DNA from: Armatimonadota bacterium | GTDB lineage: Bacteria > Armatimonadota > UBA5829 > DTLH01 | Direction: 5' to 3' | DNA length: 64,000 nt | Assembly: GCA_039680575.1 (NCBI GenBank) | Contig: JBDKSP010000095.1 | Location: 12,910-76,909 of the forward strand | In this document: one piece after another, positions 4,169 through 63,733 of the stretch | Layout of the letters: every line of letters starts with the position of its first letter | Position numbering within the stretch: the first letter of the stretch is position 1 | Made by a program: the position numbers and the translations under genes | Notes under the pieces: model-generated | Databases searched by the model: none | What the model was told of the DNA's origin: nothing | What the model saw: the letters and a program-made list of their open reading frames with translations, nothing else

Positions 4169-4446
4169 CTGACAGCCATCAGCTTTTGAACCGCGGAAAC
4201 GCGGAACGAATAGAAACGCGGAGGGTGGAGACTTAAAGCATTTACCCTTTCTTCGGGACCGTAGTTCTACCACGGAGAGAAGCACACTTCCCTATGCTAT
4301 TCGGGACCGCTTTTCGTCCCGAAGCACGATTTTGCGCAGACTCGAAAAGTTGGCTTCGGCGCAAACTACACGCACCAAGCATAAGAGGTGTCCCAGTACA
4401 ACTTCGAACAATCTCTTCTGTTCTCTGTTTCCCTGTCATCTGTTCC
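4166..4446. repeat. Mosaic intergenic repeat: module A (tagctgacagccatcagc), module B REP-like palindrome (4295-4326, half copy at 4251), module C (atctcttctgttc... heptamer-derived)
   Basis: The same three modules occur in the same order at 27051-27170; B and C also occur at 63722-63791. Confidence 0.7.
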
Positions 4447-5608
4447 CTATAAAAGCGGCAATAGCCGCGTCGTACACCTGTTTTACCGGCACTCCGCGCT
4501 CACTGGCAGCCCGTTTGCAGTCGTCGTATTCCGGAGATGCGTTCATTATTCGGCCGTTTAGCTGGCCGATTTTGATCCTAACCTTACCGAACTCCGTTTC
4601 GACCTCCTGCCACTGACGCTCCAGGCATGCGCGCTCCATACGCTGTATCCGCACGCCTAGAGTCGATGTCTCTCGCAGTAATGTCTCTATGACCTTCTGC
4701 TCAAGTTCCGGTGAGCAGATAACCGATAGTAGCATTCCCGGCCGGTTTTTCTTCATCTGGATGGGGCTTAAGAAAACATCTAGCGCTCCAACTGCGAAGA
4801 GCCGGTCCATAACAAAGTCGTAAATCTGAGGGTTAAGGTCGTCAATATTGGTCTGTATTACGGAAACTTCATCCGCTGGGGTCTTCTTGTCCACGGTCTC
4901 GCCCAGCATCACCCTCAGAACGTTCGGAAAACCATGGTCTTGAGTTCCTGCGCCGTAGCCGACCTTCTCGACCGACATTGGAGGCATCGGACCGAAGTCT
5001 GACGAGAGAGTAGTAATAATAGCCGCGCCTGTTGGGGTAACAAGCTCACCCTCTGCGCCAACTTCGCGCCAGGGAACACCCTTTAGCAACTCCATTGTAG
5101 CAGGCGCAGGCAGTGGAAATGTCCCATGTGAGCCGGTAGCAAAGCCGTGAAATGTGGGCATGGGGCTTGAGACGATCTTTGGCCGTCCAATGAGCTCAAG
5201 ACAGATTGCAGTCCCGATTATATCGATTATTGCATCGACCGCACCTACTTCGTGAAAATGCACATCATCCGGGCTGGAACCATGGACTGTCGCTTCCGCC
5301 TCAGCAAGCCGTTTGAATATCGCGCCGGACTTCTCTTTCACCCAGTCAGAAAGGCTAGAGCCATCGATTATGGATAGAATATCCCCCAGCCTTCTATGAT
5401 GATGGTGATGGTGCTCCATTACGACTTCAACATCGGTCGCCGCTATATGGTTCTTCTCAGTCCTCTTGACATCAAGTGTGTAGCCTTCTACACCCAGGCA
5501 GGAGAGCGCCTCACGAAGCTTTTCCGGATCCGCCCCCACCCCAATGAGCGCGCCGAGGGTCATGTCTCCGCTTATGCCTGCAAAACAATCGAAATATGCG
5601 GTTTTCAT
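4436..5608 (-). CDS. larC: Nickel pincer cofactor nickel insertase LarC (single uninterrupted ORF)
   Basis: YFDCFAGISGDMTLGAL, His-rich EHHHHHHRR, VHFHEVGAVDAIIDI, GELVTPTGAA, TNIDD, MKKNRPG, PEYDDC. Confidence 0.95.
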   Translation of the reverse strand: MKTAYFDCFAGISGDMTLGALIGVGADPEKLREALSCLGVEGYTLDVKRTEKNHIAATDVEVVMEHHHHHHRRLGDILSIIDGSSLSDWVKEKSGAIFKRLAEAEATVHGSSPDDVHFHEVGAVDAIIDIIGTAICLELIGRPKIVSSPMPTFHGFATGSHGTFPLPAPATMELLKGVPWREVGAEGELVTPTGAAIITTLSSDFGPMPPMSVEKVGYGAGTQDHGFPNVLRVMLGETVDKKTPADEVSVIQTNIDDLNPQIYDFVMDRLFAVGALDVFLSPIQMKKNRPGMLLSVICSPELEQKVIETLLRETSTLGVRIQRMERACLERQWQEVETEFGKVRIKIGQLNGRIMNASPEYDDCKRAASERGVPVKQVYDAAIAAFIGNR

Positions 5609-6357
5609 TTATTCACCTGATGTGCGAAGTAACCTGCGCCGAATCCATTGTCGATATTAGTCACAGCGACCCCGGCTGCACAGGAATTGAGCATTGCAAG
5701 AAGCGCGGAAAGCCCGCCGAAGCTCGCGCCGTAACCAACACTCGTCGGAACGGCTATAACCGGCTTTGAAACAAGCCCGCCGACCACGCTCGCAAGAGCG
5801 CCTTCCATACCAGCCACAACGATCAGCACGTTTGCATTCATAAGCCGTTCTTTTTGATCCAGAAGCCTGTGGATTCCGGCGACACCGATGTCATAAGCCC
5901 GCTCTACACGGCTCCCCATTGTCTCCGCCGTGATTGCTGCTTCTTCAGCAACCGGCACATCGGCTGTCCCTGCGCAGACTACCATTATGTATTTATCATC
6001 AGCAGGCTTTGCCGTTTCAACCTCTTTGTTCACGACTACTACTCTTGCGAGTTCGTGATAAGTCGAGTTATCGACTTCGGACACTATCCGAATGGCTGTC
6101 TCTTTTGACACTCTCGTGGCGAGCACCTTTGAATTGCGTTCTGAAAGCCGTTTGACTATCTCTACAGCCTGCTCGCAGGTCTTTCCCTGGCAGAAAACGA
6201 CCTCTGGAAATCCTGTCCGAATCTCTCTATGCATATCGAGCTTGGCATATCCTATATCTTCATAGGGCAGTGTGCGAAGCTGCATCATAGCGTCTTCTAT
6301 CGGAACTCCGCCGCATTTTACATCCTCAAGCAGCTTTTGGAGTCGTTCAGTGTCCAT
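5605..6357 (-). CDS. larB: NPN biosynthesis carboxylase/hydrolase LarB (PurE-like)
   Basis: RTGFPEVVFCQGK, AGTADVPVAEEA, DIGVAGIHRL, AGMEGALASVVGG, PTSVGYG, NSCAAGVAVTNIDNGFGA. Confidence 0.95.
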   Translation of the reverse strand: MDTERLQKLLEDVKCGGVPIEDAMMQLRTLPYEDIGYAKLDMHREIRTGFPEVVFCQGKTCEQAVEIVKRLSERNSKVLATRVSKETAIRIVSEVDNSTYHELARVVVVNKEVETAKPADDKYIMVVCAGTADVPVAEEAAITAETMGSRVERAYDIGVAGIHRLLDQKERLMNANVLIVVAGMEGALASVVGGLVSKPVIAVPTSVGYGASFGGLSALLAMLNSCAAGVAVTNIDNGFGAGYFAHQVNK

Positions 6358-7183
6358 TATTCTCTACCTCAGACGGCTTCAACACAGCGTTCATGCTACC
6401 TGTGCGATAGCCATTCATGTCTAATGTTGTATATGTATATCCTATATTCTTGAACTTATCAGCAACCAATTGCCGTATTTCATTGGATGCGAGCCGCGGT
6501 ATTTCATCCGGTTCTACTTCTATCCTAGCGACTGTGCCGTGGTGCCGGACTCTGACCTGGCGGAAACCAAGGTCCTTCAAGTATTTTTCAGCTTCTTCGA
6601 GCTTTTTCAATACTTCCAGCTCTATTCGGGTCCCGTAAGGTATTCGAGACGCGAGGCATGCAAATGCAGGTTTATCCCAGGTCGAGAGCCTCATTCCTTG
6701 TGATAATTTTCTGATCTCATCCTTATTTAGCCCTGCTTCTCTGAGTGGGTTCCTTACTCCAAGCTCGGCTGCTGCACGGCTGCCGGGTCGAAAATCGCTC
6801 AAATCATCGACATTGGCACCATCGGCGACCCAGCGTATCTCACGCTCTTTTGCAATCGCTATCAACTTCCCGAAGAGCTCCGACTTACAGAAATAGCATC
6901 TATCCGAAGTATTACAGGCGAAGTTCTCGCTTTTAAGCTCATCGGTGTGTATACGAACCAGGTTCAGTCCAAGATTTGCAGCGGTTTTCTCCGCTTCCAG
7001 GACTTCTGATGCAGGATATGTCTCCGAAGACGCCAGGACGCACACCGCATGGTCCTTCAAAACTTCCGTTGCGACCGCTGCAAGAAATGTGCTGTCTACT
7101 CCACCGGAGTATCCGAGCACCAGCCCACCCATATCCGATAGAATTACCCTCAGTCGTTCCAACTTACCGTCAATTATGCTCAT
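6347..7183 (-). CDS. larE: ATP-dependent sulfur transferase LarE (CXXC...C type)
   Basis: PP-loop SGGVDS, DRCYFCK, DFRPG, ACLASRIPYG, QVRVRHHG. Confidence 0.95.
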   Translation of the reverse strand: MSIIDGKLERLRVILSDMGGLVLGYSGGVDSTFLAAVATEVLKDHAVCVLASSETYPASEVLEAEKTAANLGLNLVRIHTDELKSENFACNTSDRCYFCKSELFGKLIAIAKEREIRWVADGANVDDLSDFRPGSRAAAELGVRNPLREAGLNKDEIRKLSQGMRLSTWDKPAFACLASRIPYGTRIELEVLKKLEEAEKYLKDLGFRQVRVRHHGTVARIEVEPDEIPRLASNEIRQLVADKFKNIGYTYTTLDMNGYRTGSMNAVLKPSEVENNGH

Positions 7184-7195
7184 AATGCCTCAGAC

Positions 7196-7316
7196 AAAAA
7201 AAGCCATCAAGCTCGTCGCCCGTTTTGGACGGCGCCTTCATGGCCTCAGATTCAGTTTAATGATATTTATAACTTGACTCCAGCTTCAGCCGGAGACTCA
7301 AGAGCCTTCACAACTC
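7196..7316 (-). promoter_or_regulatory. Structured 5' leader / attenuator of larEBC ending in an intrinsic terminator (stem 7244-7203, U7 tail 7202-7196)
   Basis: Minus-strand hairpins GAGUU-GUGAA-GGCUC and CUCCGGC-UGAA-GCUGGAG, then terminator GCCAUGAAG...CUUGAUGGC-UUUUUUU just before the larE RBS. Confidence 0.7.
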
Positions 7317-7323
7317 AGTCGAT

Positions 7324-7353
7324 AGTATATACCGAAGAGAGGATTCACGTCAA
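7324..7353 (-). promoter_or_regulatory. Sigma70-type promoter for larEBC
   Basis: TTGACG (7353-7348) - 18 nt - TATACT (7329-7324); predicted start ~7317, at the first leader hairpin. Confidence 0.65.
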
Positions 7354-7439
7354 ACTGTGAAATCCATCGCTCAGCCGCTCTATTTATATGATAATATATA
7401 GCAACTGAGCTTTCATAAATATCCATTTGGAGATTGAAT

Positions 7440-9782
7440 ATGCGCGTTATCATCAACGAGGAACCATTTATCGATCCATCCAAACATTGGGCCCAAAGAG
7501 GCTATTGGCCTGCTAAGGTAATCGCTCATCCAGAAATAACGACGGATGAAGCATCCGTGACGGCTTACCGCAGATACTTCAACCTGCCAAAAGACACGAA
7601 AATTCGCATCCATGTCACTGCAGATGAACGGTATGAACTGTTCCTTGATGGCATGCGGATCGGGCGCGGCCCGGAACGTGGAGACAGAGATAACTGGTTT
7701 TACGAGACATACGGTCTGGACCTGAAAGCTGGAGAACATACACTTGTCGCTCGGACATGGTGGCTCGGCTCGGACAGCCCAGCACCCTACGCGCAGATTA
7801 TGGTACGCCCTGGCTTCGTCCTTGCTGCAGAAGGAATCGAGCCGGAGGTCCTGAACACCGGTGTTGCCGAGTGGGACAGCAAGATCATCGGTGGATATTC
7901 AACCGTCAGCCCTGATGGTGCAGCTTGGGGAGCCGGTGCGAAGGTCCATATAAAAGGTGATGAGTTCGCATGGGGGTTCGAGACAGGAAACGGTGATGGC
8001 TGGTCCCCAGCTAAAGCAATATGCAGGATAGCAGCCGCATCGTATGCAAACGAATATCCGCCCATCTGGATGCTTCGCCCTGCGGTCCTTCCTCCGATGA
8101 TGGAAGAACCAAGGAAAGTGGGAGTTGCGAGGCATATTCAGGGTGTTGATACCGAAGATACTTCACCTATCCGTGTTGCAAGTGCGGATAACATCCCCGC
8201 CGAAGCTGATAGTTGGAACAGGCTCCTTAAAGGCGAGAGCACGGTTGTTATTCCGAAAAATACCATGCGCCGCCTTATAATAGACCTTGAGAACTACTAT
8301 ACAGCCTATCCTGAGTTTACCGTATCGGAAGGAAAAGGCTCAAAAATCAGAATATTCTGGGCTGAGGCGCTGTATCTCAACATCGATAATAGAAAATCGG
8401 GAAAAGGAAACCGCAACGAAGTAGAGGGTAAATACTTCTTCGGAATGGGCGATACTTTCGAGCCGGACGGAGGCAAATCCCGAAGGTTTGACACTCTCTG
8501 GTGGGAAGCGGGACGTTATCTGGAGGTCTTCATCTCGACTGCTGACCAACCGCTTATAATAGAAGACTTTACACTTCGCGAGACTCATTTTCCATACGAT
8601 TTTGAGAGTAAAATCGACGCAAGCGACTCCAAACTTGCCGAAGTAATACCGATAGCGCTGAGGACTCTTGAAATGTGCTCACACGAGACTTACATGGACT
8701 GCCCATACTATGAGCAGTTGATGTATGTGGGAGATACCAGGCTCGAAGTGCTGACTTCATATACCACAACCAGAGATGACAGGCTCCCTAAGAAGTCTCT
8801 TTTGATGTTTGACCGGTCGCGAAGGTTATCCGGGCTTACGCAGTCCCGCTATCCGAGCCGGGTGACACAGGTAATCCCACCGTTTTCGCTCTGGTGGGTC
8901 GGGATGGTCCACGACTTTGCGATGTGGAGGGATGACCCTGAGTTCGTCAGAAGCCTCATCCCCGGCGTTAGGACGGTGCTCAATGCTTTTATCGGTTATA
9001 TAAATACTGACGGGCTTGTAGAAGGTCCCAGGGGATGGAATTTCACGGACTGGGTACCAAACTGGTGGGACGGTATTCCGCCGGATGGGCACCTGGGCGT
9101 GAGCGGGATCCTCAACTGGCAGACCGCGCTGATACTCGGCCTTGCTGCAGATCTTGAAAATACTTTCGGAGACCCGGAAATCGCCCAGAGGAACTTGAGA
9201 ATACGTGATAGGATAGCAGCAATAGCAAAAGAGGCATTCTGGAATGAAGACCGAGGCATATTCGCTGACGATCTCTCTAAAGAGCACTACAGTGAGCATT
9301 CGCAGTGCCTCGCTCTCCTCAGTGGAACAGTCGATGGCTCCAAACGCGCAAGAATGATAGAGGGACTCTTGACTGACCCTAACCTTGAACGGACGACCAT
9401 CTATTTCAGCCACTATCTCTTCGAGACTTACCGGTTGATAGGGAGGATCGACAAGCTCTTTGAACGGATGGGGCTGTGGTTCGGACTGAAAGACCAGGGG
9501 TTCAAGACAACGCTTGAAATGCCGGAGCCGAGCAGGTCCGACTGCCATGCATGGGGAGCCCATCCCGTATATCATTACTTTGCCTCAGTGCTTGGAATCC
9601 GCCCCGCATCACCAGGGTTCAAGACGGTCAAAATCGAGCCGCAGCTTGGGCACTTGACATATGCAAAAGGTGAGCTGGCGCATCCATGGGGTATGATCAA
9701 AGTGGAGTTCGAGCAGAAAGACGGCGGATATTCAAGCAATATATCGCTTCCTGATGGAGTCGAGTTAGTATCAAAAGTTTAG
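7440..9782 (+). CDS. Alpha-L-rhamnosidase (GH78), cytoplasmic
   Basis: HVTADERYELFLDG...GRGP, YMDCPYYEQLMYVGD, SDCHAWGA, LGIRPASPGF; ATG at 7440 follows GGAG. Confidence 0.88.
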   Translation: MRVIINEEPFIDPSKHWAQRGYWPAKVIAHPEITTDEASVTAYRRYFNLPKDTKIRIHVTADERYELFLDGMRIGRGPERGDRDNWFYETYGLDLKAGEHTLVARTWWLGSDSPAPYAQIMVRPGFVLAAEGIEPEVLNTGVAEWDSKIIGGYSTVSPDGAAWGAGAKVHIKGDEFAWGFETGNGDGWSPAKAICRIAAASYANEYPPIWMLRPAVLPPMMEEPRKVGVARHIQGVDTEDTSPIRVASADNIPAEADSWNRLLKGESTVVIPKNTMRRLIIDLENYYTAYPEFTVSEGKGSKIRIFWAEALYLNIDNRKSGKGNRNEVEGKYFFGMGDTFEPDGGKSRRFDTLWWEAGRYLEVFISTADQPLIIEDFTLRETHFPYDFESKIDASDSKLAEVIPIALRTLEMCSHETYMDCPYYEQLMYVGDTRLEVLTSYTTTRDDRLPKKSLLMFDRSRRLSGLTQSRYPSRVTQVIPPFSLWWVGMVHDFAMWRDDPEFVRSLIPGVRTVLNAFIGYINTDGLVEGPRGWNFTDWVPNWWDGIPPDGHLGVSGILNWQTALILGLAADLENTFGDPEIAQRNLRIRDRIAAIAKEAFWNEDRGIFADDLSKEHYSEHSQCLALLSGTVDGSKRARMIEGLLTDPNLERTTIYFSHYLFETYRLIGRIDKLFERMGLWFGLKDQGFKTTLEMPEPSRSDCHAWGAHPVYHYFASVLGIRPASPGFKTVKIEPQLGHLTYAKGELAHPWGMIKVEFEQKDGGYSSNISLPDGVELVSKV

Positions 9783-62695: not shown

Positions 62696-62708
62696 CCGTA
62701 AGATATCG

Positions 62709-62783
62709 AATCTACTGATCAGGCGGTCTTACATTTAATTCGTAAGGCGCTGCCGGGCTCAGCTTAACGTGAGCAGCAGGTTG
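62709..62783 (+). ncRNA. NiCo (czcD) riboswitch aptamer
   Basis: CUGAUCAGGC...stem(GUCUUAC/GUAAGGC)...GCCGGGC-stem(GCUCA/UGAGC)-AGCAG signature upstream of a CDF gene. Confidence 0.85.
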
Positions 62784-62826
62784 GACCTGTGGGACTGTTA
62801 AAACAGACTCACAGGTCTATTTGTTT
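62782..62826 (+). terminator. Riboswitch expression-platform terminator
   Basis: GACCUGUGGG...CUCACAGGUC followed by UAUUUGUUU, immediately before the RBS. Confidence 0.75.
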
Positions 62827-62836
62827 GAGGTAGCAG

Positions 62837-63733
62837 ATGAAAACCAAACGCGGCGCGGCAGCGCTGTCCATTCTATCTAACTCCATCTTGGTCGCGCTGA
62901 AGCTCATTATTGGGCTGATTACGGGCTCGGTCAGTATTATTTCCGAGGCGATTCACTCAGCCACGGATCTTGCGGCATCGCTTATCGCTTTTTTCTCTGT
63001 CAGCGCAGCCGATATCCCCGCTGATGAAGAGCATCCCTTTGGCCATGGGAAAATCGAGAATATCTCCGGCGTAGTCGAAGCTATTCTTATATTTGTCGCA
63101 GCCGTATATATACTATACGATGCGTTTCTCAAGTTCCGATCCGGGCGCGAGATCGATACGCTTCCCGGTATCATAGTGATGTTCGTCTCGATGGCTGCGA
63201 ACTTCCTTATATCCAACTGGCTTTTCAAAGTTTCCGAGGAGACCGATTCCATTGCGCTTGCAGCTGATGCGCATCACCTTCGTATCGATGTCTGGACATC
63301 CGCTGGAGTTTTCGCAGGCCTTGTACTCATTAAAATCACTGGGCTTTTCGTTCTCGACCCCGTTATAGCGGTTGTCGTAGCCGGGTTGATATTCAAAGTA
63401 GCATACGACCTTACGAAGGAAGCAGGCGGGCCGCTTGTCGATATTCGGCTTCCCGCAAAAGAAATAGAGATCGTCACCGATATTCTTCATTCTGAACCGA
63501 AGATCGTCGCATTCCACAAGCTCCGCACCCGTAAATCCGGCGCGCACAGACACATCGATGTCCACCTGATCGTGCCCAAAATGATGAACATCGGTGATGC
63601 GCATGATCTCGCGGAAGAGCTGGAGGACCGCATACGCGACAGATTTCCCGGAGCGCATGTCATCACGCACGTCGAACCCGATACTGAAGACAACCTTTGT
63701 GATACGCCACCGGAGGAATTAGGAAACAGGTGA
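62837..63733 (+). CDS. Cation diffusion facilitator (FieF/CzcD family) metal exporter
   Basis: SEAIHSATD, HPFGHGKIE, ADAHHLRID, HKLRTRKSG, THVEP. Confidence 0.93.
   Translation: MKTKRGAAALSILSNSILVALKLIIGLITGSVSIISEAIHSATDLAASLIAFFSVSAADIPADEEHPFGHGKIENISGVVEAILIFVAAVYILYDAFLKFRSGREIDTLPGIIVMFVSMAANFLISNWLFKVSEETDSIALAADAHHLRIDVWTSAGVFAGLVLIKITGLFVLDPVIAVVVAGLIFKVAYDLTKEAGGPLVDIRLPAKEIEIVTDILHSEPKIVAFHKLRTRKSGAHRHIDVHLIVPKMMNIGDAHDLAEELEDRIRDRFPGAHVITHVEPDTEDNLCDTPPEELGNR

Follow-up and report, generated by a model that had tools for sequence, protein, structure and literature searches.

The leader of the larEBC operon in the Armatimonadota genome studied here is, as far as comparison of homologous leaders can establish, a real, conserved and uncatalogued attenuator that ends in a predicted intrinsic terminator. 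It displays three hairpins with loops ending in GAA, the last of which overlaps the terminator, and leaders of the same type are found in several phyla together with a protein family, DUF3842. The attenuator probably works by antitermination of the ANTAR kind with DUF3842 as the protein that reads the RNA, and it likely responds to nickel status; we infer the binding, the signal and the sign of the signal. The original prediction, made from the DNA sequence alone, was that of an undescribed attenuator, and it stands: the leader matches no Rfam family, is conserved, and shows covariation in the predicted terminator. No description of a GAA-hairpin RNA was found in the titles and abstracts searched, a scope that leaves subscription papers and the supplements of RNA-motif surveys outside, or in the passages of PMC11770544 and PMC11247825 examined.

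Organization and folding of the larEBC leader

Positions refer to the window, the whole 64,000-nucleotide stretch of DNA that was analyzed, and all parts of the leader and operon are on the minus strand. The larE open reading frame (6347..7183), annotated here as the sulfur insertase of nickel-pincer cofactor synthesis, is followed by larB (5605..6357) and by larC (4436..5608), which carries the C1 and C2 domains in one frame as well as a His-rich stretch. All three are above NCBIfam cut-offs (larE, TIGR00268, 321 bits, cut-off 150; larB, NF033503, 299 bits, cut-off 175; larC, TIGR00299, 215 bits and NF052512, 167 bits). A promoter-like site of the sigma-70 type, TTGACG-18-TATACT (−35 at 7353-7348, −10 at 7329-7324), scores 10/12 and is the best of 4 sites in 2 kb, where 2.2 are expected by chance; similar promoter-like sites are found ahead of larE in many relatives.

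Hairpin 1 (7316-7302) has a GUGAA pentaloop closed by a U-G pair; its stem changes between genomes and its loop retains GAA. The core of hairpin 2 (7295-7278) shows a UGAA tetraloop closed by a C-G pair and can be extended to 7302-7273, base 7302 being common to hairpin 1 and the extended form. An A/U-rich linker (7248..7272), predicted to be unstructured and not conserved in sequence, leads to hairpin 3 (7244-7234), which consists of 3 bp and an AUGAA loop and is predicted to be both antiterminator and terminator 5′ arm. The predicted intrinsic terminator (7196..7246) pairs its 5′ arm at 7246-7236 with 7211-7201 save for a G-G mismatch, encloses an inner hairpin (7231-7217) and finishes in a U7 tail (7202-7196) whose end is 12 nt ahead of the larE ATG at 7183. 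A GAGG sequence resembling a ribosome-binding site (7188..7191) is situated 3′ of the U tail. The promoter, hairpins 1-3, the terminator, the U7 tail and the spacing to larE all lie where the original prediction had placed them. One correction concerns hairpin 2, whose position is right but which had been labelled a pentaloop; the loops are 5, 4 and 5 nt in size, and the label holds for hairpins 1 and 3.

Hairpin 3 and the terminator had been proposed to be mutually exclusive, and computed folding agrees. Hairpin 3 pairs with a probability of 0.92-0.96 in transcripts ending before the 3′ arm and of 0.0 once the arm is included. The terminator form has a computed energy of −37.5 vs −25.8 kcal/mol for the three-hairpin form and is ~12 kcal/mol more stable. 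In the computed ensemble hairpin 2 pairs at ~1.0 and hairpin 1 only at ~0.2. Folding energy alone is not exceptional and is mildly better than that of shuffled sequences: the whole leader gives z = −1.68, with 13 of 200 shuffles equally good, and the terminator part z = −2.14, with 8 of 200 equally good. Mismatches in the terminator stem meant that a simple terminator scan picked up the inner hairpin alone.

Conservation, not energy, is what appears to raise the leader above chance, since the layout is found ahead of larE in six further genomes of Armatimonadota and similar elements occur at ~100 loci in other phyla. Five of the best 30 larE loci from 61 genomes carry the layout with stems changed and loops kept, and in four families of the phylum the stems differ while both upstream hairpins and the terminator persist. 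A covariance model, R1, built from five larE leaders, gives one copy in each of its five source genomes and none elsewhere in the 61 genomes; the genome from which the window comes (G000) has a single copy. R1 missed the G019 leader and is thus insensitive to diverged copies. The G019 larE leader shows three hairpins and a terminator, whereas the hairpins and DUF3842 are both missing from the four members of its genus that were examined. The G346 larE leader displays an upstream and an apical GAA hairpin, a terminator and a diverged hairpin 3. Of 14 candidates from a descriptor scan of G000, only the larE leader shows upstream hairpins.

Near-identical GGAA-loop hairpins with U tails are found on the minus strand of G000:C18 and G000:C32 (reversed-contig positions ~14231 and ~12014), just 3′ of unrelated genes, and are likely plain terminators. 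DUF3842-free relatives, represented by L005 (G005), L008 (G048), L018, L020, L021 and L029 (G010, G013, G017, G016), keep a terminator-like hairpin ahead of larE while the GAA hairpins are absent. These terminator-like hairpins are either decayed copies of the element or another switch.

No Rfam 15 family, PyrR and the known riboswitches included, reaches its gathering score on the leader or, in 20 homologous loci, on the element, as had been anticipated. The NiCo riboswitch (RF02683) is also a nickel/cobalt-related leader with a terminator; it is a protein-free multi-stem junction ahead of efflux genes, and its model gives no match at 7100-7500 up to an E-value of 10. The model does find a NiCo riboswitch at 62705-62799 on the plus strand (48.5 bits), which precedes a CDF-family exporter (62837-63733) and serves as a positive control.

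The GAA-hairpin family and its downstream genes

The family signature is GCC-RNGAA-GGC inside the 5′ arm of a terminator, with stem-variable GAA-loop hairpins upstream. A search pattern consisting of hairpin 3 and the terminator 3′ arm was matched at 118 loci in a set of 185,579 species genomes, mainly in Desulfobacterota, Nitrospirota and Bacillota, with some in Chloroflexota and Armatimonadota. Fourteen of the 118 loci were removed by eye or by open reading frame check as coding sequence, non-complementary arms or unrelated palindromes (L078, 084, 094, 095, 099, 109, 115, 126, 130, 136, 145, 153, 166 and 170). A viral scan with the pattern gave 3 matches, which are taken as chance hits within coding frames. 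Of 19 matches in a metagenome scan, 15 were dropped and 4 accepted; two of these precede larE, and the others a TonB receptor and exbB respectively.

The upstream hairpin is absent from the search pattern. A GAA-loop hairpin within 100 nt upstream is found in 52 of 75 distinct leaders (the first 80 loci with 11 dropped, duplicates and truncated copies removed and four added), compared with 3.0 ± 1.7 (maximum 9) in 200 shuffles; 23 of the 75 show none within this distance. Over 103 distinct leaders there are 75 upstream loops, consisting of 50 pentaloops, 21 tetraloops, 2 hexaloops and 2 heptaloops. The stems of these hairpins are unrelated in sequence but the loops are conserved, with the GAA ending shared by upstream hairpins and hairpin 3. 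The hairpins are spaced ~31 to 64 nt apart through an A/U-rich linker.

In an alignment of the terminator (70 of 130 extracted copies), 97.6% of 700 cells are paired, and there are 35 double changes vs 8.2 in shuffled alignments, counts of a kind that relatedness inflates. Twenty-five of the 35 are at loop position 2 and are compensated in the terminator 3′ arm. Together with the layout in relatives, this covariation is what the original prediction had called for. Because the pattern demands the 3-bp stem of hairpin 3, which never varies, this stem yields no covariation evidence; support for hairpin 3 as a structure comes instead, on comparative grounds, from the same loop on the free upstream hairpins and from the G019 and G346 variants. 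In many loci (e.g. L067, L070, L119) the apical loop of the terminator is itself a GAA loop with a C-G closing pair, a feature not present in the window.

Outside Armatimonadota the element is found mostly ahead of Ni/Co-type uptake and nickel-binding genes. The downstream proteins scanned (n = 34, 33 of 69 candidates plus L054) include eight TonB receptors, three FmdE, three ECF S components, and two each of FecCD, DUF4198, OprB and methyltransferase. CbiM, a NikA-like binding protein, TonB, ExbB, DUF3842 and four other families occur once each. Three have no family, and two of these carry HWxxHxxxH, which is the motif of the CooJ metal site according to 10.64898/2026.03.10.710785. Small Pfam-less proteins with this CooJ-type motif follow the element in L076, L085, L141 and others. 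In L069, L080 and L111, from Bacillota genomes where CooT was not found, an unassigned ECF S component follows the element, and L111 has DUF3842 directly upstream. One Anaerolineae locus reads DUF3842, element, fmdE, larE, larB, larC, giving a second lineage with a lar link; CooT was not found in this genome. As judged by gene order, what is new here is the element ahead of larEBC, which concerns cofactor biosynthesis and not uptake, in Armatimonadota and one Anaerolineae genome. The original prediction was of a protein- or ligand-controlled system for nickel-pincer synthesis. A protein, DUF3842, is now favoured, but specificity for lar genes does not hold, since most of the targets are uptake genes.

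The repeated similar hairpins and the strongly metal-related downstream genes could also suggest a protein-free riboswitch, in which hairpin 3 would be stabilised by a ligand spanning the GAA loops, be it Ni2+, Co2+ or an intermediate of nickel-pincer synthesis, and DUF3842 displays no known RNA-binding fold. We regard this as distinctly unlikely. Twin hairpins are known from the guanidine-II class of riboswitches, where the loops are complementary and pair with each other, whereas the upstream and hairpin-3 loops here are alike and not complementary. Conserved loops of 4 or 5 nt on unrelated stems, the variable spacing and the lack of loop complementarity argue for a protein reader. A riboswitch also fits poorly with the leaders that show no upstream hairpin within 100 nt, and tight coupling to a protein family would be unexpected for it. 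Furthermore, a switch turned on by metal would raise uptake when metal is plentiful.

Co-occurrence with DUF3842

Clustering of neighbouring genes at 71 loci gave DUF3842 and CooT, of which DUF3842 has a clear match in G000 (G000:C4:15026-15448, outside the window) and CooT none. DUF3842 is present in 47 of 50 element genomes chosen across taxa and in 0 of 14 control genomes; it was not found in 3 of the 50. At 7 loci the element adjoins or precedes DUF3842 itself.

An even sample of 201 Desulfobacterota genomes, two of them previously known to hold the element, contains DUF3842 in 76 and a relaxed form of the pattern in 34, with 0 matches for a reversed-pattern control. DUF3842 is found in 33 of the 34 pattern-positive genomes vs 43 of the 167 pattern-negative ones, and both are absent in 124. 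The matches in G145 (the sole DUF3842-free one), G151 and G187 look like coding sequence. A strict pattern match is absent in 43 of the 76 DUF3842-positive genomes. LarC co-occurrence was set aside as non-discriminating, LarC being present in 180 of the 201.

DUF3842 is rare in Armatimonadota (above cut-off in 9 of 61 and 10 of 251 genomes). Among 34 larE leaders from this phylum, two GAA hairpins are present in 7/7 with DUF3842 and in 0/27 without; one of the 27 has a single GAA hairpin, and two come from genomes in which the only trace of DUF3842 is a remotely similar domain of a membrane protein. The G019 and G346 leaders were looked at once DUF3842 had turned up in these genomes, not before, and hairpins and a terminator are present in both. 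On a LarE tree the combined DUF3842/leader label needs 6 changes, at least 4 of them forced, and is not more clustered than in shuffles (62/500), though kin are not independent. No element was found in 4 of 11 Armatimonadota genomes with full DUF3842. Two of these (G009 and G425) have no larE above cut-off, and the other two (G011 and G029) gave coding or ambiguous matches only. The gene that precedes most Armatimonadota DUF3842 genes is one we take to be maf-like, and this mostly shared position 3′ of the maf-like gene means that inheritance accounts for part of the pattern. In G425, a REC-ANTAR gene, the maf-like gene and DUF3842 form one run (L249:1220-2861). The remote DUF3842-like domain mentioned above is at the C-terminus of a 657-aa membrane protein in G431 (L248:1254-3224) and G493 (G493:C456); it is above the Pfam cut-off, and no element was found in these two genomes.

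Genomes that have DUF3842 and no detected element, 4 of 11 in Armatimonadota and 43 of 76 in Desulfobacterota, would be expected if another protein carried out the antitermination and DUF3842 were a protein or co-factor of the nickel pathway that is retained or lost along with the system. The resemblance of the DUF3842 fold to small-molecule-binding domains points the same way, and the families compared were DUF3842, CooT, ANTAR, LarC, NikR and CbiM only. Even so, this explanation appears unlikely, because DUF3842 is the only specific neighbour family with a clear match in G000 and because the leaders of G019 and G346 were predicted from its presence.

The logic of the element is that of ANTAR/EutV targets, as originally suggested. 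In both, taking the EutV targets as described in PMC8934654, one or more upstream hairpins are followed by a like hairpin in the 5′ arm of an intrinsic terminator, expression is off by default, and stems count as structure and loops as sequence. EutV-type targets are described there as two hexaloop hairpins with A as the first and G as the fourth loop base, whereas the element has penta- and tetraloops ending in GAA, a long variable linker and nickel-related targets. In the GAA family the G is third from the 3′ end of the loop (position 2 or 3) and position 1 varies. A variant ANTAR target, with a REC-ANTAR regulator binding the hairpins and the GAA-G end resembling the 3′ half of ANTAR loops, would account for the shared layout (PMC8934654). 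One REC-ANTAR gene each is present in 5/5 genomes tested, the one in G425 is two genes before DUF3842, and L054 has an upstream A1/G4 hexaloop. But hexaloops are only 2 of the 75 upstream loops, a size filter against smaller loops is suggested in PMC8934654, G005 has ANTAR and no element, and the element tracks DUF3842, which does not belong to the ANTAR proteins. Such a variant is thus very unlikely.

DUF3842, CooT and the nickel signal

The predicted structure of DUF3842 is a small Rossmann-like fold (pLDDT 93.9; single-sequence prediction gives pLDDT 39) with an invariant glycine-rich loop and few conserved basic residues. The best Foldseek match has an E-value of 3.6e-4 and TM 0.52, and the best VIA match Z = 9.4, rmsd 4.0 with 122 aligned residues. 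Known antiterminator folds are absent among the structure matches listed, which are generic Rossmann-like folds only. Sequence searches of the PDB with DUF3842 gave nothing below an E-value of 0.099, and the Atlas returned only DUF3842 itself. Residues ~64-108 weakly resemble (E = 0.1) a conserved segment of ribosomal protein uL1, a protein absent from the fold matches listed. The modelled fold neither shows nor excludes RNA binding and may leave room for a nucleotide-like effector.

CooT is a nickel-binding dimer (PMC6006190). It is found in 44 of 50 other element genomes and directly follows DUF3842 in 35 of 36 regions, often overlapping it; the 36 are those parsed from 40 picked for that adjacency. 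A modelled complex of DUF3842 with the CooT dimer scores 0.48 vs 0.01 for the best control, with at least 93% of contacts agreeing between runs and a partner pLDDT of at least 85; in a benchmark, 18 of 157 solved complexes scored 0.60 or lower, as did 2 of 215 mismatches. This gives weak support for an association of the two proteins. CooT-linked DUF3842 sequences show LP[HQRP] near the C-terminus in 34/35, while ten other DUF3842 sequences show H[VF][ED] in 9/10 and have fewer basic residues after K46 than the CooT-linked ones.

CooT may be the nickel sensor in other lineages. It was found in 0 of 11 Armatimonadota genomes searched, and a full HMM scan of G000 gave none. CooT is therefore probably not the reader; as sole reader it is rejected for the Armatimonadota branch, and its absence here, if real, means that it cannot be required for this RNA. 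LarA was likewise not found in G000 (96.8% complete) by Pfam, tblastn or a 3-sequence profile, and its N-terminal domain was not found in G007 either; larEBC is present in both genomes. With CooT and, in G000, LarA not found, and with decayed terminators kept in DUF3842-free relatives, the leader might be a relic switch in this lineage, read through constitutively after loss of CooT. This is highly improbable, since four Armatimonadota families retain both upstream hairpins and the terminator even though the stems have changed.

Antitermination by DUF3842 would proceed as follows. Transcription would stop by default at the terminator in the larEBC leader. DUF3842, probably as an oligomer, would bind the GAA loops and keep hairpin 3 closed, which would allow read-through, and the two upstream GAA hairpins would serve to recruit the protein. 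Nickel shortage would be the ON signal. In most lineages, where the DUF3842 gene sits beside that of CooT, CooT may be the partner sensor. Because CooT was not found here, the larEBC branch would need another input, either DUF3842 itself or another partner. For low nickel to switch cofactor synthesis on is not obviously a useful direction. A far less likely idea, suggested by the modelled fold, is that DUF3842 senses and antiterminates on its own, with the nickel-pincer cofactor or its NaAD-derived precursor binding in the glycine-rich Rossmann-like pocket. If the cofactor does bind there, the result would be feedback shut-off of larEBC here and a report of nickel status to uptake operons elsewhere, and LarBCE would take on a role in signalling in genomes such as G000, where LarA was not found.

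Nickel control is known on DNA, through NikR and RcnR, and through the NiCo riboswitch. NikR controls nickel uptake and LarR the lar genes, the latter reportedly on DNA in L. plantarum; these are the same kinds of target, but both regulators act on DNA at initiation, whereas the element described here is in the transcript and includes a U-tailed hairpin. NikR is present in 4 of 5 genomes tested. The cbiM-type uptake genes of G000, G003, G004 and G019 have no element, and three of them adjoin nikR, which likewise lacks it; in these genomes the element is thus confined to larEBC.

If true, a protein-read attenuator would be a third route of nickel control, used across several anaerobe-rich phyla, and DUF3842, if it is the reader, would gain its first function. 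The larEBC branch would offer the simplest test case, with one leader, one candidate reader and no CooT found. It also suggests that synthesis of the nickel-pincer cofactor is controlled at the RNA level, in a genome where no LarA client was found.
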